Source: Bdellovibrionota bacterium (GTDB taxonomy: Bacteria; Bdellovibrionota_C; UBA2361; JBIKWN01). Taken from it: DNA of 30,501 nucleotides. Shown here piece after piece: positions 12,821-28,755 of the stretch. The first letter of the stretch is position 1. Every line of letters begins with the position of its first letter. The translations under genes were made by a program, and so were the position numbers. Where the stretch lies: positions 1 to 30,501 of the forward strand of contig JBIKWN010000029.1 of NCBI GenBank assembly GCA_044356295.1, given 5' to 3'. The notes under the pieces are model-generated. The model was not told where the DNA came from, searched no databases, and saw only the letters and a list, made by a program, of their open reading frames with translations.

Positions 12821-12835
12821 AAAAAATCCCTTCAA

Positions 12836-14068
12836 TTACTTGTAACGCAACGCATGCATAAGTTCGCTCGCAGCATTGCCAGGATTATAGCTCTCAGCGT
12901 TTTTAACGATGCTATACAATTTTTTCAATTGTTTCTGATCGATTTTTTTATTCTCTTGATTGAGTGAAGCAACAGCCATCACAAGTTGTTCAGCAAGCTG
13001 AAGATCGAACCCTGGATTTTTAGAAATAAACTCACCAAGAGCAATACGTAGTTCGTTTGAACTAACTAAGACAGATTTTTTTTGAATCGTTTCAAGTTGA
13101 TCTTCGAGATTTGCTATAGCATCTAATGAGTCAGCTTGATTACTACTCTCGTGTAACTTTGAAACATAATCAGACCATGTCGTGAGTGTACTATTTTTTG
13201 AAGCAGCAAGAATAATCGATATCGTTTCAAGATGAGTTGTATTAATACGAGGAAGACCGACTCTCTCTGAACGTGGACGAGTCATAAAACCTTTTTGACT
13301 AATACTTTGATGGCATGAAAAACATGAAAATTGTGAAAATTCTGGGAAGATTTCATGGGAACTAATATGTCTCTTGAGGTGAGCAAGGTTTCTTTTTGCG
13401 AGGTCTATTTGACCAATAACCCAACCATCTATCGCTTTGTACGATGAGTCTTTCCAGTGCCTAGGCATGACGGCTTCGTAGGTATCTAATTCAAAAGAAA
13501 TTCGAGGGTGTCCAGCTCCGTAAAGGCGATGTGTTACCTCTTTTTTTTCATCACCGTAATGACAGCTAGAACATACTTGAGCTCTCGTAGAGAGGTTTTT
13601 CAAGTCAATAAGACCATTGGCTATGTTCTGAGCGTGAGTGGCGTCTTTAGAAGTATGGGTCGAGAGCCATTGTTCACCAGCACCATGGCAACTTTCACAG
13701 CCTACGCCATCTTCGATCCTAAATTTTTCAGCTTTATGAGTGCTATTGGTAGCATGACAATCGAGGCAGAGCTTATCAGATTGTGGGCTACCAACCCCTA
13801 AAAGATAAGCTATTCGCTTAGATTCAGGGGAAAGGAGCGTTTGGAAGCTTTTTGAGTGTCTATCATACTTGTACCAAGTGACAAACTCGTTTCCTAGAAT
13901 ATTGCCTGTATTTTTCGGTGTTATTCCGCCATGACAATTAGATGATGAACAAGAACCAACACCCATTGCCTTGCTATGAAATTCCTGGGCAGACGTAAAA
14001 CGAGCACTTAGGAAGAAACCAAGAAAAATGTAAAAAAGGAAGGTCCTAAAAGAAATTGCATTAAACAT
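12836..14068 (-). CDS. Exported multiheme c-type cytochrome (c554-like domain), 4 CxxCH plus 1 CX4CH
   Basis: Signal peptide ending near TSA-QE; heme motifs CSSSNCH, CLDCH, CESCH, CSSCH and CFSCH; GVGCESCHGAG is typical of the c554/c552 domain. Confidence 0.85.
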   Translation of the reverse strand: MFNAISFRTFLFYIFLGFFLSARFTSAQEFHSKAMGVGSCSSSNCHGGITPKNTGNILGNEFVTWYKYDRHSKSFQTLLSPESKRIAYLLGVGSPQSDKLCLDCHATNSTHKAEKFRIEDGVGCESCHGAGEQWLSTHTSKDATHAQNIANGLIDLKNLSTRAQVCSSCHYGDEKKEVTHRLYGAGHPRISFELDTYEAVMPRHWKDSSYKAIDGWVIGQIDLAKRNLAHLKRHISSHEIFPEFSQFSCFSCHQSISQKGFMTRPRSERVGLPRINTTHLETISIILAASKNSTLTTWSDYVSKLHESSNQADSLDAIANLEDQLETIQKKSVLVSSNELRIALGEFISKNPGFDLQLAEQLVMAVASLNQENKKIDQKQLKKLYSIVKNAESYNPGNAASELMHALRYK

Positions 14069-14075
14069 CGTTCTT

Positions 14076-14108
14076 AGATTGATCGGAGTTAAATCTTACG
14101 CGTAATAT
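14076..14108. promoter_or_regulatory. Candidate divergent control region: FNR/CRP-like box and possible sigma70 promoter
   Basis: TTGAT-CGGA-GTTAA (14079-14092) matches 8 of 10 positions of TTGAT-N4-ATCAA. TTGATC-N18-TAATAT points toward the + operon. Lies in the 70-bp gap between divergent genes. Confidence 0.3.
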
Positions 14109-14138
14109 AGCCTCGCACGTTTGTTTTTTACAACAGTA

Positions 14139-15554
14139 ATGTCTGAGTGTTTTGAAATTGCAATTATTGGAGCCGGACCAGGTGGGTTAGGTGCTGCAAC
14201 GCGTTGTGCAAAGCTTGGGATTTCTCACATCTTGTTTGAAAAAGGTCAGATTGGTAACACCATCTATGACTATCAGCTTAGAAAGCATGTTATGGCTGAG
14301 CCAAGTAGGTTGCCACTTCGAACAGAGGTTGGTTTTCAAGCAGGCACCAGAGAGTCAATTCTTGAGGTCTGGAATTCAACTGTTCAACAGTTAAAAGTAA
14401 ATATCAAGAATGAAGAAGTCATCTCTATTAAAAAAGTAGGGGATATCTTTGAAATTTCAACTCCTTCAGGTTTGACTCAAGCAAAGTATGTAATCCTTGC
14501 AATTGGAATGCAGGGGACTCCTCGAAAAGTGGAAGTACCTGGTGGAGACCTTCCTTTTATCTCATACACTCTTGCCGATCCGGACGCTTTTTCTGGAAAA
14601 AATATATTAGTCATTGGGGCTGGTGATGCAGCTATTGAAAATGCAATAGCATTAGCCGAGAACAATAAAGTTTCCATCTTGAACAGGACAAGTGAATTTT
14701 CACGTGCAAAAGATGGTAACGTTGCACTTATCACTACTGCTATTGATAGTGAGAAAATAAAACCTTTTTACGATGCTGATCTTGCACGAGTTGAAACTGG
14801 AGTTTGTTATATCACAACTCCCGAAGGTGAGGTTTCTCAACAGGTCGATCAAATAATCGCTCGTATTGGCTGTATCATGCCAAGAAGATTTCTTGAAAGT
14901 TGTGGATTGCAATTTGCAAATAAGGAACCAACCACACCACCAACAGTGGATGAACATTATCAATCAAGTGTTCCTGGGTTGTTTGTAATTGGCGCATTAA
15001 TTGGGTATCCGCTGATTAAACAAGCGATGAATCAGGGATACGAAGTTGTCGAGTTCTTACGAGGCTCTCCAGTTGAACCAGCTGATCAAGTATTAATAGA
15101 TGAGCGATTAAAAGTAATTACTGGAAATTCAAAAGAAAATTTTCTACGGATTCGTAAAGCACTTCCTCTTTTTGCAGAGCTTACTGAGCCACAGTTTCGA
15201 GAACTTATCTCTGAATCTACCATTCATGTCGCAAAAGCAGGTGAAGTTATTTTTAAAAAAAATGACTACACCGATTCTTTCTGGAGTGTGATATCAGGTG
15301 GCGTTGGAATAGAAATAAGCACTACAGCATCTGTCCCTCTTGGGGAGGGCAACTTTTTTGGTGAAATGGGATTAATCTCTGGAAGACGGCGAAGTGCTAC
15401 AGTAAAAGCAACAAGAGAAACGTTGCTTCTAGAAACACCAAGAAAACAGATCTTAAAACTTATAGCCTCGGTAGATTCGGTCAGAATTGTACTTGATAAG
15501 ACTTTTCTTATTCGTGCTTTTCAAACAACTATCTTTCCTGAAGCCTCAGCTTAG
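14139..15554 (+). CDS. Thioredoxin-reductase-fold FAD/NAD(P)H oxidoreductase plus first cNMP-binding domain (N-terminal part of a gene interrupted by in-frame TAG)
   Basis: IAIIGAGPGG (FAD), LVIGAGDAA and LNRTSEFSR (NADPH type), SSVPGLFVIG, no CxxC; cNMP cassette FFGEMGLISGRRRSATV. Confidence 0.85.
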   Translation: MSECFEIAIIGAGPGGLGAATRCAKLGISHILFEKGQIGNTIYDYQLRKHVMAEPSRLPLRTEVGFQAGTRESILEVWNSTVQQLKVNIKNEEVISIKKVGDIFEISTPSGLTQAKYVILAIGMQGTPRKVEVPGGDLPFISYTLADPDAFSGKNILVIGAGDAAIENAIALAENNKVSILNRTSEFSRAKDGNVALITTAIDSEKIKPFYDADLARVETGVCYITTPEGEVSQQVDQIIARIGCIMPRRFLESCGLQFANKEPTTPPTVDEHYQSSVPGLFVIGALIGYPLIKQAMNQGYEVVEFLRGSPVEPADQVLIDERLKVITGNSKENFLRIRKALPLFAELTEPQFRELISESTIHVAKAGEVIFKKNDYTDSFWSVISGGVGIEISTTASVPLGEGNFFGEMGLISGRRRSATVKATRETLLLETPRKQILKLIASVDSVRIVLDKTFLIRAFQTTIFPEASA

Positions 15555-16472
15555 ATGTTGAGTGAAGTTGCGGATAGGTGCACATTCAAAAAGTATAAAA
15601 AAGGCGAAGTTCTTTTTCGTGAAGGTGATATCGGAGACGCGTTGTATGTCGTTCGCAAAGGCTCTGTAAAAGTTTCTAGAAAGAACCGTGAAGGAATAGA
15701 TGTTATTCAGACCTATATTCCTGCTGGAAATTATGTTGGAGAAATGGCGCTTTTATCTGTTGAGCCAACTGCTCGCAGTGCAACAGTCAGCGCAGCGGTA
15801 AACTGTGAAGTTGTTGTTATTTCTAAAAATGATTTTCAAGGGCTCCTATCTCAATTTGAAGCTCTGCTTGAACGTATAACCCGATTAGCAGAAGAGCGTC
15901 GTGTTGAAAATATTGTTCATAATCAGGATGAAGATACTGGTGATCTTTTAAATTTTTTATTTGCTCAGGGTGTTAGTGATGCAGATAATTTTTTACTGAT
16001 TGATTCAGACCTTTGTGTTTCTTGTGATAACTGTGAATCTGCGTGTGCTGCAACCCATGGAGGATATAGTCGTCTTGATCGGAAGGGTGGAAAAAGTTTA
16101 GCTTCAATACAGATTCCTGTTTCATGTCGACACTGCGAGAATCCTTACTGCATGACGGATTGTCCTCCTGATGCGTTACATCGAAACCCAAATGGAGAAG
16201 TGATTATACGTGATTCATGTATTGGATGTGGCAATTGCGTCAGAAACTGCCCGTACGGTGTTATTCAGTTAGTGTATGAAAAGAAACCATTAACATCGAT
16301 TTTTGATTTTTTTAAAAAACCAGAGAAGGGTCCTGCAAAAGCTGCAAAATGTGATATGTGTTCGACCTTGGATGGAGGTCCAGCATGTGTACGTTCATGC
16401 CCAACTGGGGCAGCAATGAGGGTAAACCCTTCTAAGCTGTTAGCCATAATCCAAGAAAAAGAGGTTTTTTAA
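15555..16472 (+). CDS. Second cNMP-binding domain plus DmsB/NrfC-like 4x[4Fe-4S] module (same frame as upstream ORF, probably one gene 14139-16472)
   Basis: GEVLFREGD.GD.LYVVRKG.V and GEMALL....RSATV; Cys groups CVSCDNCESAC, CRHCENPYCMTDCP, CIGCGNCVRNCP and CDMC...PACVRSCP. Confidence 0.85.
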   Translation: MLSEVADRCTFKKYKKGEVLFREGDIGDALYVVRKGSVKVSRKNREGIDVIQTYIPAGNYVGEMALLSVEPTARSATVSAAVNCEVVVISKNDFQGLLSQFEALLERITRLAEERRVENIVHNQDEDTGDLLNFLFAQGVSDADNFLLIDSDLCVSCDNCESACAATHGGYSRLDRKGGKSLASIQIPVSCRHCENPYCMTDCPPDALHRNPNGEVIIRDSCIGCGNCVRNCPYGVIQLVYEKKPLTSIFDFFKKPEKGPAKAAKCDMCSTLDGGPACVRSCPTGAAMRVNPSKLLAIIQEKEVF

Positions 16473-17296
16473 TGACACAAGAAAACTTTCTTTCTTTATA
16501 TGGTTGGCGATGGCTAAAAATAACTTCTCTATTAGTTGTTTTTTCTATTATTTGGTATTTCTTAGATAACCCGATCTTTCCAAAAAGTGGATCGACGTTC
16601 TATGGATATGTTCTAGGTATTATCTCTGCTGGAGCAATGTTATATCTTCTTTGGTTTGGGATAAGAAAACGATCCTATTTTTCATCGACTGGCACATTAA
16701 AAGAGATGCTCTCAGCTCATATCTGGATCGGTACTGCTCTTTTGGTATTAGTTCCTCTTCACTGTGGATTTCGATTTCATTTTAATGTTCATACTATTGC
16801 CTATATTTTCTGTGTCTTAACAATTGTTACAGGGATTTGGGGTGTCTATTTATATCGAACTCTTCCAGAACAGATACGATCAAACCGGGGAGAAGGAAGT
16901 CTCAAGCTTTTACTTGAACAATTTGAATCTTTAAATCAATCACTTCGTAAACTTGAGGCTGGAAAATCGGATAGTTTTGTTCGGTTTGTTGCAATTCTCG
17001 ATACATATAAAGTTCCTACTTTACCAAGTCTGCTCCTTGGGAAACGATCTAAAGTAATCTCCAAAGAACAATCTGCTCGAGCGCTTGAATCGATATCTCA
17101 AGAGGAGCGGGTTGATGCTTTATCAGCAATTGGATTAATTGATAGACGATTTGAATTCCTTGTGAGGATCGAGCACGAAGCTCTTATTCAATTTTGGCTC
17201 AAATTTTGGTTAATGACACATGTTCCTCTTGCGTGTGGAAGTATGCTTTTACTCGTGGTCCATATTTTTTCAGTATTGTATTTTGGAAAGCCGTAA
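16472..17296 (+). CDS. Inner-membrane protein, putative diheme cytochrome b (ferric-reductase-TM-like)
   Basis: About 5 hydrophobic helices. Two carry H-x13-H pairs: HIWIGTALLVLVPLH and HVPLACGSMLLLVVH. TAATG overlap with the Fe-S ORF. Confidence 0.65.
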   Translation: MTQENFLSLYGWRWLKITSLLVVFSIIWYFLDNPIFPKSGSTFYGYVLGIISAGAMLYLLWFGIRKRSYFSSTGTLKEMLSAHIWIGTALLVLVPLHCGFRFHFNVHTIAYIFCVLTIVTGIWGVYLYRTLPEQIRSNRGEGSLKLLLEQFESLNQSLRKLEAGKSDSFVRFVAILDTYKVPTLPSLLLGKRSKVISKEQSARALESISQEERVDALSAIGLIDRRFEFLVRIEHEALIQFWLKFWLMTHVPLACGSMLLLVVHIFSVLYFGKP

Positions 17297-18862
17297 ATGA
17301 AGATTCGATTCGTTGAAAGCTCATCAAGTCAACATCAATCTCTGCAACATAAGTCGCAGGAATTTGAAGCTCAGGAACTCATTATTGGACGTGGAGGGCG
17401 GAGCACTCTTGTCATTACTCATCGCTCCCTTTCACTTGAACATGTTTCTTTAACTGAATCTGCTAATGGTTTAGAGGTTAAAGATCTAGGTAGTCTCACT
17501 GGTATCCAGCACAATGGACGTATCGTTCGTCAAGCGGTGCTGCAACATAACGATACCTTAACCCTTGGATCATTTGAGTTACAAATCTATTTTGAATCAG
17601 GTGTCTGGATACTTCATCATGAAAAAACTGAAGATGAAATTTCAGATGTCAGTGCGTTAACGTCGAGATTACATATCCTTAGTTATCTTCCTCCGGTGAC
17701 TCGACTTTCTTTGTACGTCGTTATTGTAATTGCTTTTATTTATATTCTTCTGCCTTTACTCTCAAAAAAATCGATTGAGACTCATTCGGTAGGTTCTTTG
17801 ACTAAACATCACTCATTTTTGGCACATGATTGCGCTGCGTGTCATACAAATTCTTTTCAACCAGCTTCTGATAAAGGGTGCCTTGATTGCCACTCGGTCG
17901 GCACTCACTACGATAGTAAACAAGAGAAACTTAGTAGTTTTGCCCCACATAATCTTAATGGAGATAAAAACTGTCTTTCATGTCATTCAGAGCACAAAGG
18001 TCATGTTACCTATGACGACAATAGGAATTGCACGAGTTGTCATGCAAACATTGAATCTATAAACGATATAAGTCTTAAGAATGTAGAGTCTTGGTTAACG
18101 CATCCAGAATTTTCAGTAAAACAAGATAAAGGCGAAATAAAACTGAATCATCACGTTCATTTGAAAGAGGGACTTCGCGGTGACAAAGGTCCAGAAACTT
18201 TACAATGCTCGAGTTGTCATACCCTTGATGACAATGGTACCCGCATGAAACCGATAACCTATGAAACGAATTGTTCACGTTGTCATAGTCTAGAATTTAG
18301 CGAAAGATTGCCAGGCAAGGTGGTGCCACATGGTGATGCTGATGAAGTGATACGTTATTTGCAGCAAAACTTTGCAGAAGCTGCGCTGGACCGTACTTCA
18401 GCACCAGCGAAGGGTGATAGCGACCGACTTATTCCATTGCAAAAACAAAATGAACTTCTCTTTGAACAGCAGTCTGTTATCAAAGAAGTGAATGATACTT
18501 CAAAAATAGTTTTTACCAAGACTGGTTGCGCACTGTGTCATACAGTTTCTGAAGTTATGTCGACAGATTCAAAACTACCAACAAAGTACGAAATCAAAAA
18601 AGGTGCTATTCAAAACGAGTGGCTTTCAAAATCAACATTTGCGCACAGTCAACATGGTCAAATTGATTGCAATAGTTGTCATAAAGATGTGCAAATTTCT
18701 AAATCTTCAAAAGATGTATTAATGCCGAAAAAGTCAGATTGTCTCGATTGTCATGCAAAATCAGAATCGCTATCAAGTTGTATAACTTGTCACAATTTTC
18801 ACGATGAACAGCCACTCAATCTTTTGATGAGCCCAACATTTCGAAAGGATGCTAATAAATGA
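17297..18862 (+). CDS. FHA domain - TM helix - decaheme c-type cytochrome
   Basis: FHA pattern IIGR...LSLEH...VKDLGSLTG...NG...L...D.L.LG; TM LYVVIVIAFIYILLPLL; ten CxxCH (CAACH, CLDCH, CLSCH, CTSCH, CSSCH, CSRCH, CALCH, CNSCH, CLDCH, CITCH). Confidence 0.88.
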   Translation: MKIRFVESSSSQHQSLQHKSQEFEAQELIIGRGGRSTLVITHRSLSLEHVSLTESANGLEVKDLGSLTGIQHNGRIVRQAVLQHNDTLTLGSFELQIYFESGVWILHHEKTEDEISDVSALTSRLHILSYLPPVTRLSLYVVIVIAFIYILLPLLSKKSIETHSVGSLTKHHSFLAHDCAACHTNSFQPASDKGCLDCHSVGTHYDSKQEKLSSFAPHNLNGDKNCLSCHSEHKGHVTYDDNRNCTSCHANIESINDISLKNVESWLTHPEFSVKQDKGEIKLNHHVHLKEGLRGDKGPETLQCSSCHTLDDNGTRMKPITYETNCSRCHSLEFSERLPGKVVPHGDADEVIRYLQQNFAEAALDRTSAPAKGDSDRLIPLQKQNELLFEQQSVIKEVNDTSKIVFTKTGCALCHTVSEVMSTDSKLPTKYEIKKGAIQNEWLSKSTFAHSQHGQIDCNSCHKDVQISKSSKDVLMPKKSDCLDCHAKSESLSSCITCHNFHDEQPLNLLMSPTFRKDANK

Positions 18863-20706
18863 ATGTAACAAGAATTGTTTTTTTACTTGTTCTTATCTCT
18901 TCTTTGAACAGTTGTGGAGGAGGCGGAGGGTCTTCAGGTGGCGGCAATGATGGTGCTTGTGATGGATCATGTGCAAATCAATCATTGAGTGTTGGTGATA
19001 TTGAAGCAATTGTTGGTCGTGCAACGAAAGCTGCGGCAGGTATGAGTGCTCCTGCTATTATTTCAATCGTAGATAGAGTAGGTCATGTACTCGCTGTGTA
19101 TCAGATGTCTGGCGCGTCAGCTACGACACGAATCGATGGTCAAGTGGGTGCTTCTGGCGGATTGGAACAGGCAGTAGTACCTGCTGTATTAGCTGCTATT
19201 TCAAAGGCTGGCACGGGTGCTTATCTTAGTAGTCAGGGAAATGCATTCTCAACTCGAACTGCAAGTCAGATCGTTCAGGAAAATTTTCTTCCTGGTGAAT
19301 CAAGACAACCTGGTGGTCCTTTATTTGGGGTTCAGTTTTCTCAATTACCTTGTAGTGATCTAATGAATAGAAATGCAGCCGGTCCGAAGCCGCTTCCTCT
19401 TGGTTTAGCGGGCGATCCAGGTGGAATACCACTATATAAAGAAGGTGATCTTGTTGGTGGCGTAGGTATCGAACTTAATGGTCTTTATACTGTCGACCGA
19501 GATATTCGCGGCGTCGATGCTGATAATAGAGAAGAAGAGATTGCTTTAGCTGCCGCATTTAAATTTCAAGCACCATCAAACCGAAGAGCAGATCAAATAT
19601 TTGCAGGTGGAAAAACCCTACGATTTACTGATGCAGATTATCCATCAACCGATCCAGTTAATGATGGAGAAGTTACTCCATCTGGTGGAAGTTATACACC
19701 AGTAGCAGGTTTTTTTAATGGTTCTGTTCGTGCTGGAGTTGTGTTTGGAACTCCTGAAAGTGGAATTCTCAAAACAGTTCGTGCTGGTTCAGCTGCCGCA
19801 ATTCTTGCAAGTGTTGGTGATGGCAGTAGGAATGGAGCTTCACTTGGCGGTAGTGAAATTCGGGCAGATGAAGTATCTGCTCTTTTAGATAGCGCGCTTC
19901 TCACAGCTGATCGAGCGCGAGCTGCAATTCGTCGTCCACTTGATACAAGAGCACGTGTTTCAATATCAGTTGTCGATCAAAATGGAACATTATTAGGATT
20001 AACTCGTTCAGAAGATGCTCCAGTGTTTGGCTTAGATGTGTCATTGCAAAAAGCTAGAACTGCTGCATTTTTTAGTAGTCCAGGAGCATCCGCAAAACTT
20101 GCATCATTTGGAGGATATGCAAATTCATCGAAATCATTTGCGGGAAGAGATCTGTTTAACGGAAGTATAGCAGTCACTGCACGGGCTATAGGAAATATGT
20201 CTCGACCATTTTTTCCTGACGGTATTAATGGAAATGGAAATGGACCGTTATCTTTACCATTTCCTGGAAGTGCTGGTGGTTCATCATGGAGTCCTTTTAA
20301 TACCGGACTACAACTAGATTTAATTTTTTCTGCTGTTGTTGCTCCACTTTCCGGAAACATTCCTGGCAGCTGTTCTAGTGGAAGTATTGGAAGGGCGCTT
20401 GCGAATGGAATTCAGATTTTTCCAGGAGCGGTTCCCTTATACCGTGGTACGACACTAATTGGTGCAATTGGAGTATCAGGTGATGGTATTGATCAAGATG
20501 ATATGATCTCGTATTTCGGAGCAAGCCGTGAAGGACTCACTTTTGCTGGGCACCCAAATATTGGCGATTCAACCCTTGGTTTTAATGCACCGTATGAAAT
20601 GCGAATAGATAAAGTCGATCTCAGTTCAACTGATACGCAGCTTCGATATGTAAGTTGTCCAGAGGGTCCTTTTATAGAGGATAATGGTCAAAATGTTTGT
20701 AAATAA
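18859..20706 (+). CDS. Lipoprotein with two GlcG/HbpS-like (heme-binding family) domains
   Basis: Lipobox LNS-C followed by a Gly/Ser linker. Repeat 1: ISIVDRVGHVL, SKAGT, GGIPLYKEGDLVGGVGI. Repeat 2: ISVVDQNGTLL, QKARTA, GAVPLYRGTTLIGAIGVSG. Confidence 0.8.
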   Translation: MNVTRIVFLLVLISSLNSCGGGGGSSGGGNDGACDGSCANQSLSVGDIEAIVGRATKAAAGMSAPAIISIVDRVGHVLAVYQMSGASATTRIDGQVGASGGLEQAVVPAVLAAISKAGTGAYLSSQGNAFSTRTASQIVQENFLPGESRQPGGPLFGVQFSQLPCSDLMNRNAAGPKPLPLGLAGDPGGIPLYKEGDLVGGVGIELNGLYTVDRDIRGVDADNREEEIALAAAFKFQAPSNRRADQIFAGGKTLRFTDADYPSTDPVNDGEVTPSGGSYTPVAGFFNGSVRAGVVFGTPESGILKTVRAGSAAAILASVGDGSRNGASLGGSEIRADEVSALLDSALLTADRARAAIRRPLDTRARVSISVVDQNGTLLGLTRSEDAPVFGLDVSLQKARTAAFFSSPGASAKLASFGGYANSSKSFAGRDLFNGSIAVTARAIGNMSRPFFPDGINGNGNGPLSLPFPGSAGGSSWSPFNTGLQLDLIFSAVVAPLSGNIPGSCSSGSIGRALANGIQIFPGAVPLYRGTTLIGAIGVSGDGIDQDDMISYFGASREGLTFAGHPNIGDSTLGFNAPYEMRIDKVDLSSTDTQLRYVSCPEGPFIEDNGQNVCK

Positions 20707-22411
20707 AATATACAGACTATTATATTGCCTTACTGTATTTTTTGTCGTCCACGCACCTGTTGTGTCTTCTCAAGAGCAACAGATCCCTGGAAAAGATACA
20801 CCTAAATTTCCATTCAGTATTTATGAATCACTACCAGAAGCTGCTAGTTCAACAGAATTTATTCCAGTCCCTGATCGTTGGAGACAATTTTATAAAAGTC
20901 GCTGGTTTGATCCTTATAATCAGAATGTTTTAAAAGGCGATATCCCAGTATTTGGAACTCCAGGGCATGAGTGGTTTTTTGAAGCCAACCTTACTTCAGA
21001 TACAGGTTATGAATTCCGACGTACTCCATTACCAGTCGGTTTTGCGGCGACAGAGCGCCCAAGCAGTCTTAATACTTTCGGAAAGTTTAGTCAGCATGGA
21101 TTTAACCAAACTCTTTTTTCTTCCTTCTCATTGATCAGAGGAAATACTTCATTTATGCCACCTGAGTATGAATTTAGAGTTGCTCCTGCATTTTCAGGAA
21201 ACTTTGCAAATCTACAGGAAGTAGGAGGCGTGCGCGTTGATCCGGATCGTGGTGATAATCGAAATGATTCGCATTTTGGGTTTCAAGAACTATTTGCAGA
21301 TATCCATCTAGCTAATCTGACTGACCGTTATGATTTTATTTCCAGTCGAATCGGTATACAAAAATTCAATAGTGATTTCCGCGGGTTTATATTTTCAGAT
21401 GAAACACCAGGAGTTCGACTCTTTGGAAATTACGATAATAACCTTTGGCAATATAACCTTGGATGGTTTTCAAGATTAGACAAAGATACAAACTCTGGTT
21501 TGAATGAAATTTTCAATCAACGCCATGAACAAGTTCTTGTCGCCAACCTCTATAGGCAAGATGCTCTTTTTGTTGGTCATACTATTCAAGGGAGTGCAAT
21601 TTATCGAGCTGATACTGCAGGTGATTCAGGACTTGAGTATGATAATAATGGAGCACTCGTTCGACCAGCATCAATTGGTGATCAACGATTTAAGAATATT
21701 TATTCAACGTATTTAGGTCTCAATGCTGATGGTCATATTGACCGCGTTAATACCACATCAGCTTTTTATTATGTATTTGGTAGTGAAAGTCATAATCAGA
21801 TAGCAAGGCAAGAAACCGATATATCAGCCTTTATGGTTGCTCAAGAATTATCATACGATATTGATTGGATCCGTGTTCGTGGTTCGTTTCTCTGGGCATC
21901 TGGTGACGATAATCCTTTTGATAATAAAGCGACTGGATTTGATGCGATTTTTGATAATCCTAATTTTGCAGGTGGAGATATCTCTTTTTGGCAACGCCAA
22001 GGTATTCCATTGATTGGTGGTGGAGGAGTAAACCTTGTAAATCGTGGAAGTTTGCTTCCAGATCTACGCCCAGGTAAAGAACAAGGACAATCAAATTTCG
22101 TTAATCCTGGACTGCTGCTTTATAATGTTGGCGTAGATTTTGAGCTGACACCAAAATTAAAATTGATAAACAACCTTAGTTTTTTACAGTTCGATACTAC
22201 GGAAGTATTACAAGCTCTCCGTCAAGATGGCTCAATTAGTAGTAATATTGGTTACGATGTTTCTTCAGGGATTCTCTATCGACCATTCTTAAATAATAAT
22301 GTTCAGATACGAGCTGGAGTGGCTGCATTAATTCCTGATAGTGGAGTTGAAAATCTATTCGGTGATAGAACTCTTTTAAGCGTTTTCTCTAATTTGATAT
22401 TACAGTTCTAA
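20693..22411 (+). CDS. Putative outer-membrane beta-barrel protein
   Basis: Signal peptide; many amphipathic aromatic-rich strands (WQYNLGWF, YLGLNADG, VRGSFLWASGD, YNVGVDF, VQIRAGVAAL); ends in NLILQF (terminal Phe). Start could be 20684 or 20693. Confidence 0.7.
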   Translation: MFVNKIYRLLYCLTVFFVVHAPVVSSQEQQIPGKDTPKFPFSIYESLPEAASSTEFIPVPDRWRQFYKSRWFDPYNQNVLKGDIPVFGTPGHEWFFEANLTSDTGYEFRRTPLPVGFAATERPSSLNTFGKFSQHGFNQTLFSSFSLIRGNTSFMPPEYEFRVAPAFSGNFANLQEVGGVRVDPDRGDNRNDSHFGFQELFADIHLANLTDRYDFISSRIGIQKFNSDFRGFIFSDETPGVRLFGNYDNNLWQYNLGWFSRLDKDTNSGLNEIFNQRHEQVLVANLYRQDALFVGHTIQGSAIYRADTAGDSGLEYDNNGALVRPASIGDQRFKNIYSTYLGLNADGHIDRVNTTSAFYYVFGSESHNQIARQETDISAFMVAQELSYDIDWIRVRGSFLWASGDDNPFDNKATGFDAIFDNPNFAGGDISFWQRQGIPLIGGGGVNLVNRGSLLPDLRPGKEQGQSNFVNPGLLLYNVGVDFELTPKLKLINNLSFLQFDTTEVLQALRQDGSISSNIGYDVSSGILYRPFLNNNVQIRAGVAALIPDSGVENLFGDRTLLSVFSNLILQF

Positions 22412-25400
22412 ATGAGAAAGTTTTTTCTGCTTATAGTGCTTTATCTACTCACGATAGTGAGTACATCGCAGATTTATGCTGAAGATCAAATAAAGCCTGG
22501 TTTGACAGAAGAGCATGTTAAAAAACAAAGTGACGGCTGTATTAGTTGTCATACGACGACTGATGCTTTTAGCATGCATAAAAATCCAGCAGTACACATC
22601 GGTTGTGCAGATTGTCATGGTGGTAATCCAGAAATTTTTGGGAGTAATCTTACACCTAAAAGCGAGGGCTATATCGCTAAAATGGAAGAAGCCCATGTAC
22701 TTCCTAAAAATAAAGAACTATGGAAGACATCAAGGAATCCAGAAAATAGTTACGCCGATCTTTTAAAGGAATCGTATGAGTTTGTGAAATTCATAAATCC
22801 AGGAGATTTACGAGTCAACGTTGAAACCTGTGGTGGTTGTCACGGACAAGTAGTTGATGCAGTACCAAAAAGTTTAATGTCAACAAGTGCAATGCTTTGG
22901 GGTGGGGCCTCATATAATAATAATATTCTTCCATTTAAAAAATATGTTTTAGGTGAATCCTACGATCGTGATGGAAAACCACGCGAAATTGTTGCAGATA
23001 CTCCAACAGATGCTGAAGCAAAACGTGGTGCCTTGAAAAAATTAGTTCCTCTTCCGCAGTGGGAAGTTACGACTCCAGGGGATATATTTAGAGTTTTTGA
23101 ACGGGGTGGATTATTCATTAAATCCCAATTTGCCGAAGTTGGTATTCCCAATCCATTTGAAGATCCGGGTAAGCCAGATATTAAAGCTTCTAACCGTGGT
23201 CCTGGTACTGGTGGACGTATCTCTGTGCCGGTATTAAATATTCATAAAACTCGCTTAAATGATCCACATCTTTCATTAATGGGAACAAATGATCATGCTG
23301 GTGATTACCGAAGTAGTGGGTGCACTGGTTGTCATGTTATTTACGCCAATGACAGAGATCCTAGGCATTCTGGACCATACAGTCAGTATGGCAATGAAGG
23401 TAAATCACAAACTGTCGATCCGACGATCGATAAAAATGAAAGTGGTCACCCTATAAAACATGAATTCTCGCGGGCAATTCCTACGAGTCAATGTATGGTG
23501 TGTCATATGCATCAGCCGAATATGTTCGTGAACTCATACCTTGGCTATACAATGTGGGATTACGAAACAGGCGCGGATCTTATGTGGCCAAAGAAACAAA
23601 AGTATCCTACCGACGAAGAAAAATTTGAGACGATGCTTCATAACCCCGAAGCTGCAGCAGCTCGTGGTAATTGGAGCGATAAAGATTTCCTAAAAACTCT
23701 TTGGGAGTTAAATCCAAAAGTGAAGGATACTCAGTTTGCTGATTATCATGGACACGGTTGGAATTTTAGAGCAATTTATAAACGCGATCGAAAAGGTCAT
23801 CTATTAGATGAGAATGATAAAATAGTTTCTCCCGATGATCCGAAACGATTTAAAAAAGCAGTACATCTTGCAGATATTCATGTTGATAAAGGTTTACAGT
23901 GTATGGACTGTCACTTTTCTCAAGACGGACATGGTGATGGGAAAATATATGGTGAAGTTGCACAGCAAGTCGAAATTCAGTGTCAAGACTGCCACGGTAC
24001 TTTAAAAGAGAAAGCAACACTTCGCACCTCTGGTCCAGCAGCCCCTGAAGGAGGGCGAGATCTTTCTTTAATGAGAACCGGTTTCGGTGAAGCAAGGTTT
24101 CAGTGGAGAAATGGTGATCTCTATCAACGATCAAGTGTCACACCTGGTCTTGAATGGAGAGTCAGTCAAGTTCGAGACAGCATTAATCCGAAGAGCCCGT
24201 TCTATAATAAAAAATCTGCCCGCGCAAAAACTGTTGAACGGTATCAAGAAGGGCAAAGTAAAGAGAAGTGGGGTGACCTATCTAAGATTGATGGTTCACC
24301 TGATCTGAAAAAAATACTCGCACACGCAGATGATAAAATGTCATGTTTTACCTGTCATAGTTCATGGGTAACAAGTTGCGGGGGGTGCCATCTTCCAATT
24401 GAAGCAAACTGGAAAGCAAAATCAAAACACTATGATGGTAAAGAAACCAGAAATCTTGCCACGTATAATCCGCAAGTTGCTCGTGATGATATGTTTCAAC
24501 TTGGTATTCATGGTCCAGCTAAGGATGGAAAAATTGTTCCTGTTCGTTCTTCTAGTGCTCTTGTCTTAAGTTCAACTGATTCAAATCGCCAAAAAATATA
24601 TGTACAACAACCTCCAACTTCTGCCGGAGGGTACAGTTCGCAAGCTTTTGCTCCTCACTTCCCGCATACGGTTCGAACGAAAGAGACAAAAGGATGTACG
24701 GATTGCCATATCTCTAAAGACAACGACAACAATGCGATAATGGCGCAGCTACTTTTGATGGGAACCCAGTTTGTAAACTTCATGGGTTATCATACATATG
24801 TTGGAACCCAGAACGGTTTTGAAGCAATTCAAGTTACTGAATGGGAAGAGCCTCAAGCAGTCATTGGAAGCTATCTCCATCGTTATGCGTATCCAGATTT
24901 CTACAAGACTCATCAAGACCACAATAAAGAGTTAGAAACTTCACATACACATGAAGCAGAAGGTGGCGCTATAAACACAGTGCAGCTTCGCGGTGAGTAT
25001 CTGTATACCACAGCAGGTGAAGGTGGTTTCAGAGTTTTTGATGTGGCAAACGTTGCGAATAAAGGATTTTCAGAGCGATTAGTAACGGCTCCGTTTTCTC
25101 CACTTGGACAAGATACTCATGTTCCTTCAAAGAATGCGAAAAGTTTCTCACTTCCTACGAATATGCCTGTTGCTCCATTTAGAGAGCAATTACCCGAGAA
25201 CCTTGAAACTCCAATGCATCCAATCTATCACTATGCTGCAATTGCCGATGCTGAAGAAGGCCTAATACTTGTAAATGTTGATACTTTGCAAGATGGTGAT
25301 CCAACAAATAACTTCCTAGAACGAGCACTTACATGGAACCAAGATAATCTTTTAACAGGTGCACAATATATTACTCTTGCGGGAAGCAATGCATTTATTG

Positions 25401-26074
25401 CGACAAAAAATAAAATCATAATTCTGGATCTCGATAAACCACTCGAGCCAAAAGTTATTGTCTCGATTCCGTACGATAATCCTACTGCTGTCGCAATTCA
25501 GTTTCGTTATGCATTTGTAACTGATGCAAAAGGAATGCATGTTTTAGATATCACTACTATTAATCAACCAAGAAAAGTTGAAAAAACTATCCCCCTTACA
25601 GACGCCAGAAATATTTATCTTGCAAGAACGTATGCCTACATATCAGGCGGAAGTGACGGGATGGTCATTGTCGATATAGAAAAACCTGAAGCCCCCAAGA
25701 TATACGGAAGATTTGGAAAAGAATTTGGTTTAACAGACACAAATGACATTAAAATTGCTACGACTAATGCGTCACTGTTTGCATACGTCGCAGATGGCAA
25801 AAACGGTCTTTCAATATTCCAGTTAACCGATCCAGAACGAGTTCCTGGATTCTATGGATTTACCCCAGAAGTAAAACCTCTCCTAATTTCGCACAGAAAA
25901 ACTGAAGGTGCCGTTTTTGCAATTTCAAAACCACTTGATCGAGACCGTGCTGTTGATGAAACTGGTAATCAAGTCAGTGTATTTGGAAGAATTGGTTCCA
26001 GACCATTTAATAAGAAAGAAATGGAATCTCTATTTTTGCTCTCTGATAAACGAATATATACGGTAGAAAAATAA
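22412..26074 (+). CDS. Large exported decaheme c-type cytochrome with C-terminal LVIVD-repeat (beta-propeller) region
   Basis: Signal peptide ending near IYA-ED; ten CxxCH (CISCH, CADCH, CGGCH, CTGCH, CMVCH, CMDCH, CQDCH, CFTCH, CGGCH, CTDCH); repeats YLYTTAGEGGFRVFDV, YAAIADAEEGLILVNV, YAFVTDAKGMHVLDI, YAYISGGSDGMVIVDI and FAYVADGKNGLSIFQL. Confidence 0.88.
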   Translation: MRKFFLLIVLYLLTIVSTSQIYAEDQIKPGLTEEHVKKQSDGCISCHTTTDAFSMHKNPAVHIGCADCHGGNPEIFGSNLTPKSEGYIAKMEEAHVLPKNKELWKTSRNPENSYADLLKESYEFVKFINPGDLRVNVETCGGCHGQVVDAVPKSLMSTSAMLWGGASYNNNILPFKKYVLGESYDRDGKPREIVADTPTDAEAKRGALKKLVPLPQWEVTTPGDIFRVFERGGLFIKSQFAEVGIPNPFEDPGKPDIKASNRGPGTGGRISVPVLNIHKTRLNDPHLSLMGTNDHAGDYRSSGCTGCHVIYANDRDPRHSGPYSQYGNEGKSQTVDPTIDKNESGHPIKHEFSRAIPTSQCMVCHMHQPNMFVNSYLGYTMWDYETGADLMWPKKQKYPTDEEKFETMLHNPEAAAARGNWSDKDFLKTLWELNPKVKDTQFADYHGHGWNFRAIYKRDRKGHLLDENDKIVSPDDPKRFKKAVHLADIHVDKGLQCMDCHFSQDGHGDGKIYGEVAQQVEIQCQDCHGTLKEKATLRTSGPAAPEGGRDLSLMRTGFGEARFQWRNGDLYQRSSVTPGLEWRVSQVRDSINPKSPFYNKKSARAKTVERYQEGQSKEKWGDLSKIDGSPDLKKILAHADDKMSCFTCHSSWVTSCGGCHLPIEANWKAKSKHYDGKETRNLATYNPQVARDDMFQLGIHGPAKDGKIVPVRSSSALVLSSTDSNRQKIYVQQPPTSAGGYSSQAFAPHFPHTVRTKETKGCTDCHISKDNDNNAIMAQLLLMGTQFVNFMGYHTYVGTQNGFEAIQVTEWEEPQAVIGSYLHRYAYPDFYKTHQDHNKELETSHTHEAEGGAINTVQLRGEYLYTTAGEGGFRVFDVANVANKGFSERLVTAPFSPLGQDTHVPSKNAKSFSLPTNMPVAPFREQLPENLETPMHPIYHYAAIADAEEGLILVNVDTLQDGDPTNNFLERALTWNQDNLLTGAQYITLAGSNAFIATKNKIIILDLDKPLEPKVIVSIPYDNPTAVAIQFRYAFVTDAKGMHVLDITTINQPRKVEKTIPLTDARNIYLARTYAYISGGSDGMVIVDIEKPEAPKIYGRFGKEFGLTDTNDIKIATTNASLFAYVADGKNGLSIFQLTDPERVPGFYGFTPEVKPLLISHRKTEGAVFAISKPLDRDRAVDETGNQVSVFGRIGSRPFNKKEMESLFLLSDKRIYTVEK

Positions 26075-26075
26075 T

Positions 26076-26432
26076 ATGTTTATTAAAATCTCTGCTTATT
26101 TGCTTGCAGTAGGTGTTTGCTTGGGGGCGTTTGGAGCTCATGCTCTAAAAGCACGTTTTGGTGAATATGAATTAGGCATCTGGAATACTGCTACGCTCTA
26201 CCTTTTTATTCATTGCTTAGCTCTTCTTGTTATTACCATAGCTCAAAAAGCTGGTGTGCTTACTACTGAATCAGTCATTATTACTCAATACTGCTTTCTT
26301 TTTGGGACTTTGATTTTTTCTGGTTCTTTGTATGCTTTAGCCCTGACTGGAATCAAAATACTTGGTGCAATTACCCCGATTGGAGGGACTTTATTTATCG
26401 CTGGCTGGGTTCTGTTTGCACTTAGGTCATAA
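26076..26432 (+). CDS. DUF423 (YgdD/TMEM256) small membrane protein
   Basis: LGAFGAHAL, TA..Y..IH, G..IFSGSLY.LAL and LGAITPIGG. Confidence 0.92.
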   Translation: MFIKISAYLLAVGVCLGAFGAHALKARFGEYELGIWNTATLYLFIHCLALLVITIAQKAGVLTTESVIITQYCFLFGTLIFSGSLYALALTGIKILGAITPIGGTLFIAGWVLFALRS

Positions 26433-26499: not shown

Positions 26500-28755
26500 T
26501 TGAATCAGCAAAGTTCGAAGCGACACACTAATTCTCATCCACGCGGAGTTTTACCGCTTACAGAGGTTTCATTCCCAACTCAGCGAATTAATCTTGTTCG
26601 AGGTTTTTCTGTTGATGAAAATAAAACTCACCGGATTGATCAAATCTTTACTGTAAAAGATGGGCACCTATTTTTCGGAGTTCCTGTTTCAAGTGAACCT
26701 CTAAATACTGAAATCTCAACTTCAATTGGTAAAAGTTTAGAACCAGGCATGATAATTCCTGGCTTAGTTTGTCGTGTTCCATTTGATGAACATGGATTTG
26801 GAAAGCCAGAGTTCTATAATACTATGCTTGAGAATGTGCAGCGCATGACTCCTGCTGAGCTTGGAGATGATCTTTTCAATCAAAAACATCCAGAACTTTT
26901 AATTCTTGAGAAAGCCTTAAAGCAATTTCATGCAGATAGAACCTGTGAGGTACTTCCATGGGTTTATTCAGATCCCTATGAGGCAATCATGGGCGAGCCC
27001 AGACAATCAAAAGCGAGAGACAGTGCATTAAGCAGAGGTAATGGATATATCTCTGATCTATCAGTATTAATGCATCATTTAGCTGGTGATTATCTGCGGT
27101 CCAAAAATGTAGAAGCTTTGTTTCTTGCTAGAACGGTGAAAATTTTATCTCCTGCAGAAAGAATAAAAGTAGAAAAATACTCTGATTTCCTCCAGTACCT
27201 AACTACACTAGAGGCACCCTCTGAAGTGCTACTATCTATTAGTCCTATGTTTTGGACTACGAAACCAATTATCAATATGGGTGAAGGTGGAGGGGAGAAA
27301 GGGGGGTATGTTGTCCCATGTACGTGCCCGCTTCGGTCGCTCACTGCCCGTGTTAATGTTCGAATTATTTCATTAGTTGCCGCAGGGATTATACCAGAGG
27401 ATCCATCAGGTGATATTAAAGCTATAGCTGCACTTAGAAATTCTGAGATGAGAAAACGCCATGGATCAGAGGTTTCATCTCGAATCGTACGAATGGAATT
27501 AACAGAAGGTGAAAATGGCGTTCAAGCAATTCGCCAAGTTCCTAATCGTCCGTCTTATGTAGACACCTTGGGTGAAGAAAAAGAACTTTCACGTTATCAC
27601 GAACAGTGTGGTCAAGTTGCAAAAATATTGCTGAAAAGCCGTCCTCATGCAGCACATATTGCATTTGTGATTGGCGCGTTTGATAGATCTAGAAAAAACG
27701 ACTGGGAAAAAGTTCGTCATGCAGCTTTACTTTGGCTTCAAGCACTACCTGAGCTTATTCTTCCTGTTTGTGAACTATTGAGGGTTCCTATTCAAACAGA
27801 GCAAGAAAAGTTAAATGCCTTGCCTCGATTAATAGAAAAACTTGATACCGCACAAAGTTACTTTGATGGTCTTCCTTTCAAGGCTCGAGGTTTCCATTTT
27901 AATGATCTTCCTGATGTCTATGCTAGAACTGAAAAAGAGTATCTGAAATATCTTCGAACATTACTTTTGAAGTTAGGATTAAAAGGCCTCAAATGCCAAG
28001 TCCATAAAGAACGAATTTACGAAGATGAACGAAGTCGAGAACACCGAACCCCGCATGTTGCTCGTTTTCAGATTAAAGTTGGAAGTAATACCTACGAGTC
28101 AGAGTGGTGTACAGCGAGGCAAATAAAAACTGCACAACATAAAGCAGCAGCTTCTTTACTGCGTGTTTTGATCCGAGAAAATGTAATTCCTTGGAAGATC
28201 GTAAAAGATAATACGATTCTCAATAAGGGCAGTCGTGTCATACCGAATCATCCTGGAATTCAGATGAAGGAATCGAATTCTGAAAATTGGCAAATGATTC
28301 GAAATCTTCATCCGCTCATTACAACGTTTGATCTCATTATGTTTAGAAAGGGGTGGAGATATGAAGTGATTCTTTCTGGAGATATGAATCAATCGGAAAC
28401 CAGTCACGTGATTTTGAAAATTTATCGAGATTCACATGAAGATGTATTAATTGAATCTGTGCGAGATAACGTATTGAATAAAAAACGAGACGCCATGAGG
28501 AGGGCGCTTCGATACTATATGTCTGAACTTTTGATTAAACCTGAAGACTTACGACTTCATAAAATGAGAGTTATAGGACGGATAGAAAAAGATACCCAGA
28601 ATAACGCGCCTGAATTACTTTTTGTAGACAAGATAGCCAATCCATTACTCATAGCTAATGGAACGAAAAACTATCAAAACGGAGAAATGGTGGAAGCTCA
28701 GATCAGTTATTCAAAGAGGAAAAGGCGTTATTTCGCTCGAATCCTAGACTCTTAA
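26500..28755 (+). CDS. Hypothetical RNA-binding protein: degenerate RNB (RNase II/R-like) domain, dsRBD-like domain(s) and C-terminal OB-fold-like segment
   Basis: FSVDENKTHRIDQIF aligns with RNB motif I (TIDxxxxxDxDDA). CTCPLRSLTARVNVRII aligns with (F/W)TSPIRRYxDxxxHR. PHVARFQIKVG...IKTAQHKAAASLL resembles a dsRBD. The ORF is certain; the domain calls are by eye. Confidence 0.55.
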   Translation: MNQQSSKRHTNSHPRGVLPLTEVSFPTQRINLVRGFSVDENKTHRIDQIFTVKDGHLFFGVPVSSEPLNTEISTSIGKSLEPGMIIPGLVCRVPFDEHGFGKPEFYNTMLENVQRMTPAELGDDLFNQKHPELLILEKALKQFHADRTCEVLPWVYSDPYEAIMGEPRQSKARDSALSRGNGYISDLSVLMHHLAGDYLRSKNVEALFLARTVKILSPAERIKVEKYSDFLQYLTTLEAPSEVLLSISPMFWTTKPIINMGEGGGEKGGYVVPCTCPLRSLTARVNVRIISLVAAGIIPEDPSGDIKAIAALRNSEMRKRHGSEVSSRIVRMELTEGENGVQAIRQVPNRPSYVDTLGEEKELSRYHEQCGQVAKILLKSRPHAAHIAFVIGAFDRSRKNDWEKVRHAALLWLQALPELILPVCELLRVPIQTEQEKLNALPRLIEKLDTAQSYFDGLPFKARGFHFNDLPDVYARTEKEYLKYLRTLLLKLGLKGLKCQVHKERIYEDERSREHRTPHVARFQIKVGSNTYESEWCTARQIKTAQHKAAASLLRVLIRENVIPWKIVKDNTILNKGSRVIPNHPGIQMKESNSENWQMIRNLHPLITTFDLIMFRKGWRYEVILSGDMNQSETSHVILKIYRDSHEDVLIESVRDNVLNKKRDAMRRALRYYMSELLIKPEDLRLHKMRVIGRIEKDTQNNAPELLFVDKIANPLLIANGTKNYQNGEMVEAQISYSKRKRRYFARILDS

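Follow-up and report, generated by a model that had tools for sequence, protein, structure and literature searches.

A conserved multihaem gene cluster of Bdellovibrionota and other bacteria with a putative NAD(P)H-type input enzyme and an outer-membrane barrel module

Can a single gene cluster of a Bdellovibrionota bacterium connect a cytoplasmic NAD(P)H-type enzyme with the outer membrane, in which direction would electrons run, and how much of such a system has been described before? These questions are raised by positions 12836-26074 of the 30,501-nt stretch analyzed here as a whole (contig JBIKWN010000029.1, assembly GCA_044356295.1; "the window" in the following), and all positions given are those of this stretch. 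The cluster is real, large, and strongly conserved, and its haem counts, motifs, domains, and synteny lie far beyond chance. The outer half, which comprises a tandem-HbpS lipoprotein, a predicted beta-barrel, and a protein with ten haem motifs and a propeller domain (decahaem-propeller), appears to be new in the literature searched; the inner half has already been sketched as PCC4 (He et al., 2017; PMC5566968) and as ptdABCDEFG (bioRxiv 10.1101/2023.11.21.568154), two sources that are cited here for the available parts of their texts. We read the cluster, tentatively, as a quinone-independent, NOX-like outward electron chain, in which NAD(P)H would be the electron source and the end point a terminal enzyme that is docked at the outer membrane and fed through the barrel. 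An earlier note on the window, made from the sequence alone, had proposed an undescribed trans-envelope electron-transfer system; its anatomy needed only small corrections, its mechanism finds partial support, and the claim of complete novelty has to be given up in view of PCC4 and ptd.

Conservation and gene content of the cluster

Species-representative genomes were scanned with an alignment of the barrel protein, and 595 of 600 stretches were confirmed. The cluster is thus present in at least 595 species genomes, a total that is a lower bound. Eighty loci were retained from the scan and compared by tblastn and blastp, many of them being cut by contig ends. Of the 38 loci that span 20 kb or more, 30 had all parts, as did 37 of the full set of 80, and synteny was kept across the 80, so that the co-occurrence on which the earlier note had made its proposal depend was found. 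No neighbouring gene family beyond the eight parts occurred in more than 12 of the 80 loci. A search of the protein collection with the barrel protein gave at least 7953 homologues (top matches 60-87% identical), and the barrel gene was found in 68 of the 124 species genomes of the window's own phylum. Of 401 genomes sampled from the order to which the genome of locus L049 belongs, 100 encode an ortholog of the membrane protein (E ≤ 1e-87).

Going by the titles of their records, the carriers among the 80 loci comprise Bdellovibrionota/Oligoflexia, represented by metagenome-assembled genomes (MAGs), as well as Burkholderiales, Usitatibacter, Methylophilaceae, Sphingomonadales, Parvularculaceae, many Gammaproteobacteria (Halieaceae, Steroidobacteraceae, Lysobacteraceae), and Acidobacteriota, the last with variant forms of the cluster. 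Cultured carriers include Sphingobium fuliginis DSM 18781, Sphingobium mellinum DSM 7458, Parahaliea mediterranea DSM 21924, and Tsuneonella rigui KCTC 42620. The plasmid collection contained 15 records, 12 of which are Sphingobium replicons of about 1 Mb, with the cluster genes annotated as "hypothetical protein." The gene order of the window is shared by the Bdellovibrionota/Oligoflexia MAG loci. The earlier note had seen in this order a path from the inside to the outside of the envelope, which holds for Bdellovibrionota-type loci only, whereas other lineages rearrange the two halves. An Acidobacteriota variant (L056:44-10415) encodes an FHA-multihaem protein, a protein of 647 amino acids with Fer4 and Pyr_redox_3, a TPR protein, the barrel with an added N-terminal CarboxypepD_reg domain, and the decahaem-propeller; an HbpS gene is absent from this locus. 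At another locus (L070), the HbpS gene lies on the opposite strand at a distance of 6 kb. Two MAG records titled Bordetella parapertussis (L039, L081) group with environmental Burkholderiales loci, and the label looks doubtful.

The plus-strand genes between 14121 and 26432 follow each other without gaps or with small overlaps (Table 1), the 3' end of the lipoprotein gene overlapping the listed barrel open reading frame (ORF) by 23 nt. The gene coordinates and junctions of the earlier note were borne out, except that it had placed the barrel start at 20693. Its count of haem motifs was reproduced by script: four CxxCH and one CX4CH in the divergent cytochrome and ten CxxCH in each of the two other cytochromes, which gives 24 plus 1. 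Since housekeeping genes lie on both flanks (ribosomal proteins, Pth, PRPP synthetase, IspH, and others), the cluster ends at 12836 and at approximately 26074.

The input enzyme is, judged by its domains, a cytoplasmic YpdA/TrxR-like flavoprotein with two dinucleotide folds. Its N-terminal part matched Pyr_redox_3 (130 bits) and the cyclic nucleotide-binding (cNMP) family cNMP_binding (56.6 bits) of Pfam as well as the YpdA model of NCBIfam (145 bits, under the cut-off of 340). The C-terminal part matched cNMP_binding (83.4 bits), Fer4_11 (PF13247, 47 bits), and other Fer4 models of Pfam; the models of the AegA N-terminus and of HydN scored 86 and 76 bits, each under its cut-off. In an alignment of 16 sequences, the 16 cysteines of the four cluster motifs are invariant, both GxGxxG-type dinucleotide motifs are conserved, and both cNMP phosphate-binding cassettes are kept (pattern GE...R[ST/G]A; in the first, FGE...RxA). 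The enzyme that the earlier note had described, with NAD(P)H, FAD, two cNMP, and four [4Fe-4S] modules, was thereby confirmed in its domains and invariant cysteines, and it is a single fused protein. Its gene lies directly upstream of the membrane protein gene even in rearranged or inverted clusters.

The window itself displays two ORFs for this enzyme, which share a frame and are separated by a TAG that is directly followed by an ATG. Position 15553 is a C (TCG, serine) in the contigs of all three lake-water metagenome runs with cover (X1, which may be the source sample, X2, and X4), and a genome of the same genus (G072) has a proline codon at the position of the TAG; for these reasons, the two ORFs are considered to be one gene. 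The halves form one ORF of about 765-860 residues in 15 other aligned loci and in 46 of 47 loci overall. In all likelihood, the TAG at 15552-15554 stems from an error in the assembly or from a rare variant and is not biology. A programmed read-through of the TAG and a true split gene were rejected in view of the TCG in the three metagenome runs. Contigs of one run (X1) break within about 30 nt of the TAG, which suggests strain variation or an assembly bubble. Judging from the alignment, the true start of the gene is probably the ATG at 14139.

The membrane protein is probably a di-haem b transmembrane electron carrier, as predicted from its motifs. The two H-x13-H pairs named in the earlier note proved to be nearly invariant: H83/H97 is present in all 52 homologues and H250/H264 in 51 of them, and H107 is invariant, too. 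The pairs were placed on transmembrane helices (TM) 3 and 5. All 52 homologues have [ST]GxxG on the fourth helix (TGIWG in the window copy), and both WX3HX13H motifs were found in 48 of the 52. In the window copy, residue 79 is a methionine, which replaces the tryptophan of the first motif. The AlphaFold2 (AF2) model is all helical (predicted local distance difference test, pLDDT, 81), with five long helices of membrane length and a helical insert of about 110 residues between TM4 and TM5, which we place on the cytoplasmic side following the positive-inside rule. The profile of the protein returned only coiled-coil noise from the PDB sequences (E 0.7-10). VIA-align gave helical-bundle noise with Z-scores of 8-9, including a designed two-haem bundle (8.7) and the E. 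coli superoxide oxidase CybB (8.2). In the Atlas, the protein falls in a cluster automatically named "Ferric reductase like transmembrane component," which can serve as no more than a lead. The 1.6-Mb Methylophilaceae genome of locus L033 (G126) has two copies of the membrane protein (C1:1292021-1292848 and C1:1581790-1582686); the copy at the locus has no flavoprotein gene nearby, and the input half may sit at the second site.

The membrane-anchored decahaem protein has ten haems in about 365 residues, a wire-like density, with haem domains of the c3/c7 type. Among 22 sequences, all 20 cysteines and the ten motif histidines are invariant, as are further histidines including H172, H204, and H233. 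Its FHA domain (38.6 bits, Pfam) was detected in 13 of the 22 homologues and, with a YscD-type model, in 15. The divergent cytochrome has a signal-like segment at the N-terminus, matched Cytochrome_C554 (40.9 bits, Pfam), and is haem-free in its C-terminal half. Its CX4CH motif (CSSSNCH) is kept in all 46 full-length homologues with four CxxCH, and a homologue is present in 57 of the 80 loci. This 4+1-haem cytochrome is probably a periplasmic shuttle or a side branch. Haem motif counts of 10/10/4 were found in nearly all full-length homologues of the three cytochromes, three Acidobacteriota copies having 9. In Burkholderiales-type loci (L029:1226-2770, L014:3795-5114, and about ten similar ones), the cytochrome c maturation genes ccmB, ccmC, and cycH adjoin the cluster.

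The outer half begins with a lipoprotein that has the lipobox LNSC followed by a glycine run and that matched the HbpS-like family (PF03928) with 68.7 bits in three stretches (cut-off 25). The HbpS-like domain was found in all 20 lipoprotein homologues compared and a lipobox-like string in 59 of 69; at 63 of the 66 loci with room for it, the lipoprotein gene immediately precedes that of the barrel. The barrel protein matched no Pfam family. Its AF2 model (pLDDT 57.9 overall, 70-83 in the strands) displays 18 strands, in agreement with the beta-barrel that the earlier note had expected at 20693-22411 and had made a touchstone of its proposal. The best folds in the PDB were AlgE chains (4xnk, 3rbh, and others; E 7e-11, TM-scores 0.41/0.53), followed by porins of 16-18 strands, while the sequence identity to AlgE is 12-15%. 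The last residue is tyrosine or phenylalanine in 76 of 80 homologues. A conserved N-terminal extension of about 65 residues and a conserved loop of about 70 residues (419-472) have no counterpart in AlgE, which otherwise has the same 18-strand fold; both are candidates for partner contacts or a plug. Going by the model, an 18-strand AlgE-like barrel lacks the room to enclose a cytochrome in the manner of MtrB.

The decahaem-propeller is the best-conserved part of the cluster (61% mean column identity among 20 sequences from several classes). It consists of a sparse decahaem domain (residues 1 to about 800), whose ten haems in about 800 residues give an enzyme-like density, and an LVIVD beta-propeller (about 800-1220), and cysteines occur only inside the ten CxxCH motifs. 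At 70 of the 71 loci with room, its gene immediately follows that of the barrel. The protein is probably the terminal oxidoreductase. Matches to models were weak (ExtM, 94 bits against a cut-off of 800, from the Geobacter ExtM/N/O models; choice-of-anchor B), and a profile search of the PDB sequences returned no match at E ≤ 1. The signal peptide of the window copy is a plain one. Upstream of the first haem motif, 8 of 65 homologues have a string that resembles a lipobox, and most of these cases look like chance. A search of representatives gave 18203 matches at E ≤ 0.001 and 923 at E ≤ 1e-30, mostly metagenome fragments. A complex prediction for barrel (28-575) and propeller (790-1220), run without controls, scored 0.00 against a mark of 0.32, which speaks neither for nor against a contact.

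Table 1. Features of the window in and next to the multihaem cluster
Feature	Positions	Strand	Evidence
c554-like cytochrome, 4 CxxCH + 1 CX4CH	12836..14068	-	motif count, Pfam
Input enzyme, N-terminal part: FAD + NAD(P)H flavoprotein, first cNMP domain	14121..15554	+	Pfam, NCBIfam, alignment
In-frame TAG splitting the input-enzyme gene	15552..15554	+	sequence, metagenome contigs
Input enzyme, C-terminal part: second cNMP domain + HydN/AegA-like ferredoxin, four [4Fe-4S] sites	15555..16472	+	Pfam, NCBIfam
Five-helix inner-membrane protein, two HX13H pairs	16472..17296	+	alignment, AF2
FHA (cytoplasmic) + one TM helix + periplasmic decahaem c domain	17297..18862	+	Pfam, motif count
Lipoprotein, Gly-rich tether, two HbpS/GlcG-like (DUF336) domains	18859..20706	+	Pfam
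Predicted 18-strand outer-membrane beta-barrel	20684..22411	+	AF2 + PDB fold search
Secreted 1220-residue decahaem-LVIVD propeller	22412..26074	+	Pfam, NCBIfam, motif count
DUF423 membrane protein	26076..26432	+	Pfam 90.7 bits
751-residue ORF	26500..28755	+	no Pfam or NCBIfam match
CpdA/SpdA-like metallophosphoesterase	28703..29524	-	Pfam Metallophos; phosphodiesterase model below cut-off

Relation to described systems

PCC4 was named by He et al. (2017; PMC5566968) and predicted from genomes only. Besides a porin and a membrane protein of five helices, it comprises three multihaem cytochromes, whose haem sites number 4, 5, and 10, a pfam13247 Fe-S gene, and other redox genes. The PCC4 membrane protein has two WX3HX13H motifs and SGXXG, and the motifs of the PCC3 and PCC4 membrane proteins were compared there with FRD/NOX and cytochrome b. 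Hyphomicrobium, Zetaproteobacteria, and others were given as carriers, and the system was modelled as an Fe(II)-oxidizing conduit to quinone. The ptdABCDEFG genes, named in a 2023/24 preprint (bioRxiv 10.1101/2023.11.21.568154), apparently have the layout of PCC4 and are a genome prediction, too; a cNMP domain and a ferric-reductase-like membrane protein are mentioned, and the function "remains completely unknown."

The cluster of the window matches the inner half of PCC4/ptd by gene content, not by sequence comparison. According to the available descriptions, the systems have in common an FAD/NAD(P) oxidoreductase, a cNMP protein with a pfam13247 4Fe-4S domain, a five-helix protein with HX13H on TM3 and TM5 and SGXXG on TM4, tetrahaem and decahaem cytochromes, and a porin beside a multihaem protein with a beta-rich C-terminal domain. 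The membrane protein motifs are present in at least 48 of the 52 homologues of the window family, and the set of PF13247 Fe-S domain, flavoprotein, and cNMP domains lies upstream of the membrane protein in the window, with the gene order kept in related loci. The outer halves differ: instead of the five-haem PtdA beside the porin, the barrel neighbour in the window has ten CxxCH and LVIVD repeats, and the tandem-HbpS lipoprotein is mentioned for neither PCC4 nor ptd in the available texts. Unlike in these descriptions, a single protein combines the flavoprotein with the two cNMP domains and the Fe-S module. The carriers of the window type are mainly freshwater and soil aerobes, whereas those of PCC4/ptd, as far as described, are marine bacteria or iron oxidizers. 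In the literature searched, no published description of an outer half with decahaem-propeller and HbpS lipoprotein was found. The uet cluster of Tenderiales was considered and set aside as a different system.

Five loci fetched for their distant homologues of the membrane protein (L084-L088; e.g., L084:6573-17080) look like the PCC3 of He et al. (2017), as far as that text was available. All five encode a homologous Pyr_redox_3 flavoprotein (30-33% identity) with a 4Fe-4S domain, followed by an ankyrin/Sel1-repeat protein between flavoprotein and membrane protein. The membrane protein has five TM and both WX3HX13H motifs as well as SGxxG. The carriers belong to the same taxonomic order as the L049 genome. 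The cytochromes have 21, 31-33, or, in L086, 24 and 49 haem motifs. These loci differ from the window in that an HbpS lipoprotein, an LVIVD protein, and a match to the window barrel were not found, and the L084 flavoprotein, the one that was scanned, has no cNMP_binding family. The flavoprotein link of PCC3 was not found in the available text of He et al. (2017).

Among the multihaem conduits of the outer membrane, MtrCAB/PioAB/MtoAB and the Geobacter OmaB-OmbB-OmcB system resemble the cluster in that genes for a periplasmic decahaem protein, a barrel, and a further decahaem protein lie side by side, and they share the idea of a haem chain that reaches the outer membrane. The cluster nevertheless lacks the Mtr/Pcc features tested, namely, barrel size, a lipoprotein as outer cytochrome, and family scores. 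Its predicted barrel is AlgE-like with 18 strands instead of a wide sheath, MtrB having 26; its outer cytochrome has no lipobox, whereas MtrC and OmcB are surface lipoproteins; and its input is an NAD(P)H-type Fe-S flavoprotein with a putative di-haem membrane protein instead of a quinol dehydrogenase. The DmsE-family model gave 17 bits (on the four-haem protein; cut-off 192) and the MtrC/MtrF domain 23.8 bits (cut-off 30). No NCBIfam model scored over its cut-off for any cluster protein and the PDB sequence searches gave no relative; a match to a characterized complex, which would have counted against the earlier note, was thus not found.

By analogy, the cluster would work most like a NOX/FRE exporter (PF01794) extended by c-type haems. 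Both combine a cytoplasmic NAD(P)H-flavin module with two predicted or known b haems held by histidine pairs 13 residues apart on TM3 and TM5, and the flow in NOX/FRE is outward. The differences lie in the membrane protein, which does not match PF01794 and has five helices instead of six, in the separate TrxR/YpdA-type flavin module with four Fe-S clusters, and in the acceptor, which for the membrane protein of the window would be a c-type haem wire and for NOX/FRE is O2 or Fe(III) directly.

Direction of electron flow and alternative readings

The chain that we favour, if only tentatively, would start at the fused cytoplasmic enzyme, where electrons would pass from NAD(P)H via FAD to the four [4Fe-4S] clusters and from there to the five-helix protein with its two putative b haems stacked across the inner membrane. 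The two cNMP domains would gate this input. The membrane-anchored decahaem wire would then carry the electrons over the periplasm to the outer module of tandem-HbpS lipoprotein, barrel, and decahaem-propeller, and the 4+1-haem cytochrome would be a soluble side branch. The decahaem-propeller is envisaged as the terminal oxidoreductase, and we would sooner place it at the periplasmic mouth of a barrel that would serve as a dedicated channel for the acceptor and not as a haem sheath. A docked terminal enzyme and a substrate channel are proposed because a barrel of 18 strands cannot sheathe a decahaem protein. A flavoprotein rather than a quinone is taken as the cytoplasmic partner because the pairing of Fe-S flavoprotein and 5-TM protein recurs in the PCC3-like and the Acidobacteriota loci. 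NAD(P)H has a low potential, which, like the membrane potential, favours outward flow. While the data show the domains and motifs with their conservation, the synteny, and the fold of the barrel, we infer from them the direction of flow, the contacts between the parts, the localization of the terminal protein, and the regulation. The NAD(P)H-to-surface wire of the earlier note is therefore supported at its input module, but a continuous haem chain across the outer membrane is doubtful in view of the 18-strand barrel and of the decahaem-propeller, which has no lipobox in 57 of 65 homologues.

Several points weigh against this reading. All cluster members are known from genes alone, and the gene set names no acceptor. 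The membrane protein matched no Pfam family at E ≤ 0.01, PF01794 included, a Foldseek search of its model against the PDB returned nothing at E ≤ 0.001, and its putative b-haem binding is read from motifs alone. The confidence of the barrel model is modest (pLDDT 57.9), and the two most conserved stretches of the barrel protein (28-86 and 419-472) are absent from it. LVIVD repeats are typical of surface proteins, which would favour an outside position of the decahaem-propeller. The cNMP domains could be structural, and the phosphothreonine (pThr)-binding residues of the FHA domain are kept unevenly across the 22 homologues (Arg in 15, Ser in 4, His in 16, Asn in 10). For PCC4, He et al. (2017; PMC5566968) proposed the opposite direction and a quinone link in the available part of their text.

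If the decahaem-propeller is indeed exposed at the surface, electrons could cross the barrel to Fe(III), Mn(IV), or humics, or to O2 with formation of superoxide. The adjacency of barrel and decahaem-propeller in 70 of 71 loci, which recalls the porin beside a cytochrome in Pcc systems, would suit such a trans-outer-membrane conduit, as would the LVIVD repeats and the weak choice-of-anchor B match, both typical of surface proteins. Given the usual barrel topology, the conserved loop of about 70 residues would be on the outer face and could there bind a partner at the surface, and the periplasm-spanning decahaem wire points to the outer membrane. The AlgE-like barrel with 18 strands, in comparison to the 26 of MtrB, argues against this conduit, and the cluster encodes no haem protein small enough to sit inside. 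The decahaem-propeller, moreover, has a plain signal peptide and mostly no lipobox, nor does the cluster come with a linked secretion system at any of the 80 loci. Taken together, we regard a conduit as unlikely, yet a surface-exposed decahaem-propeller is to be taken seriously as a rival reading. The reverse flow, in which Fe(II) or Mn(II) would be oxidized at the outer module and electrons would run inward to quinone or NAD(P)+, follows the PCC4 model (He et al., 2017) as far as described there. PCC4 and PCC3 clusters were reported from iron oxidizers and from Hyphomicrobium of Mn/Fe filters (PMC5566968), and the motifs of the membrane protein would fit a quinone-reactive cytochrome b as well. 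Yet the carriers of the window type are mostly aerobic heterotrophs (Sphingobium, Sphingomonas, Halieaceae, Burkholderiales, Bdellovibrionota), a cytoplasmic Fe-S flavoprotein accompanies the membrane protein in every case, and inward flow to NAD(P)+ would have to proceed against both the redox potential and the membrane potential. Electron uptake thus appears improbable.

The signalling modules invite a further explanation. HbpS is a haem-binding component of a redox-stress sensor, and the HbpS-like family is named after it; lipoprotein, barrel, and cytochromes could accordingly form a device for redox sensing or for haem and iron handling, in which HbpS domains bind haem, the barrel passes it, and the cytochromes report the redox state via the FHA and cNMP domains. 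Genes for a PP2C phosphatase and a double-FHA protein beside the cluster in 10 and 8 gammaproteobacterial loci, respectively, would suit this idea. It is nonetheless very improbable: a sensor would hardly call for as much as 25 c-haem sites, four Fe-S clusters, and a flavoprotein, the 80 loci share neither a transcription factor nor a kinase as a conserved cluster member, and the haem counts as well as the enzyme-like conservation of the terminal protein fit catalysis.

A wider form of the favoured outward chain may be considered, although we regard it as less than probable. Aerobes of many phyla would then carry a cNMP-gated counterpart of NOX/ferric reductase, extended by 25 c haems, and NAD(P)H together with the membrane potential would drive the reduction of an environmental acceptor by the decahaem-propeller. 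O2 (to superoxide), chelated or colloidal Fe(III)/Mn, humic quinones, or an oxyanion are candidate acceptors. The input of Fe-S flavoprotein and di-haem membrane protein would also feed the PCC3-type clusters with their giant cytochromes.

Regulation, neighbouring genes, and implications

Control by second messengers, which the earlier note had proposed, is plausible for the input enzyme, both cNMP cassettes of which are conserved, and the host genome contains four class III cyclase genes. Phospho-control via the FHA domain is weakly supported as a family trait because the canonical pThr-binding serine is present in 4 of 22 homologues; the window copy has all of the pThr-binding residues (R32, S46, H49, N73). 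Five genes for Hanks-type kinases were found in the host genome. The PP2C Ser/Thr phosphatase genes of the gammaproteobacterial loci (Stp1-like, 191 bits against a cut-off of 230) and the double-FHA genes (e.g., L034:16812-17642 and L050:9994-11013 among these neighbours) hint at phospho-signalling round the FHA-anchored decahaem protein in Gammaproteobacteria.

The CpdA-like gene is located 2.3 kb downstream, and a similar family occurs in 10 Sphingomonadales-type loci. Its product scored 86.7 bits with the model of 3',5'-cAMP phosphodiesterase (cut-off 225) and is 23% identical to the copy at L080:10343-11194, and the linkage may be a coincidence. It is possibly a cyclic nucleotide phosphodiesterase accessory to the cluster, which we take as a lead only. 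DUF423, which begins one base 3' of the cluster, is probably cotranscribed with it in the window. It is outside the conserved set, however, as neither DUF423 nor the 751-residue ORF had a match in any of the 80 related loci; the operon of the earlier note had taken in DUF423 through the junction 26074/26076. Scans for promoters and terminators in 12400-14300 and 25900-26700 gave sites that were no commoner than in shuffled sequences.

The host is considered an aerobe because its genome contains a haem-copper oxidase. Many other carriers are ordinary oxygen-respiring heterotrophs of freshwater, soil, and the sea, which are not thought to perform extracellular electron transfer. The components of the cluster are among the best-conserved "hypothetical" envelope proteins that we have seen (61% mean column identity over 1220 residues and across classes), and the existence of cultured carriers makes the question accessible to genetics and biochemistry. 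If NAD(P)H-driven export is true, the cluster would represent a third wiring from the cytoplasm to the outer membrane beside the quinol-fed Mtr/Pcc conduits and Cyc2, and it would be a candidate system for reductions that take place on cell surfaces where oxygen is present. As a counterpart of NOX, it would account at the molecular level for the so far unexplained reductive chemistry that heterotrophs of oxic waters perform outside the cell.

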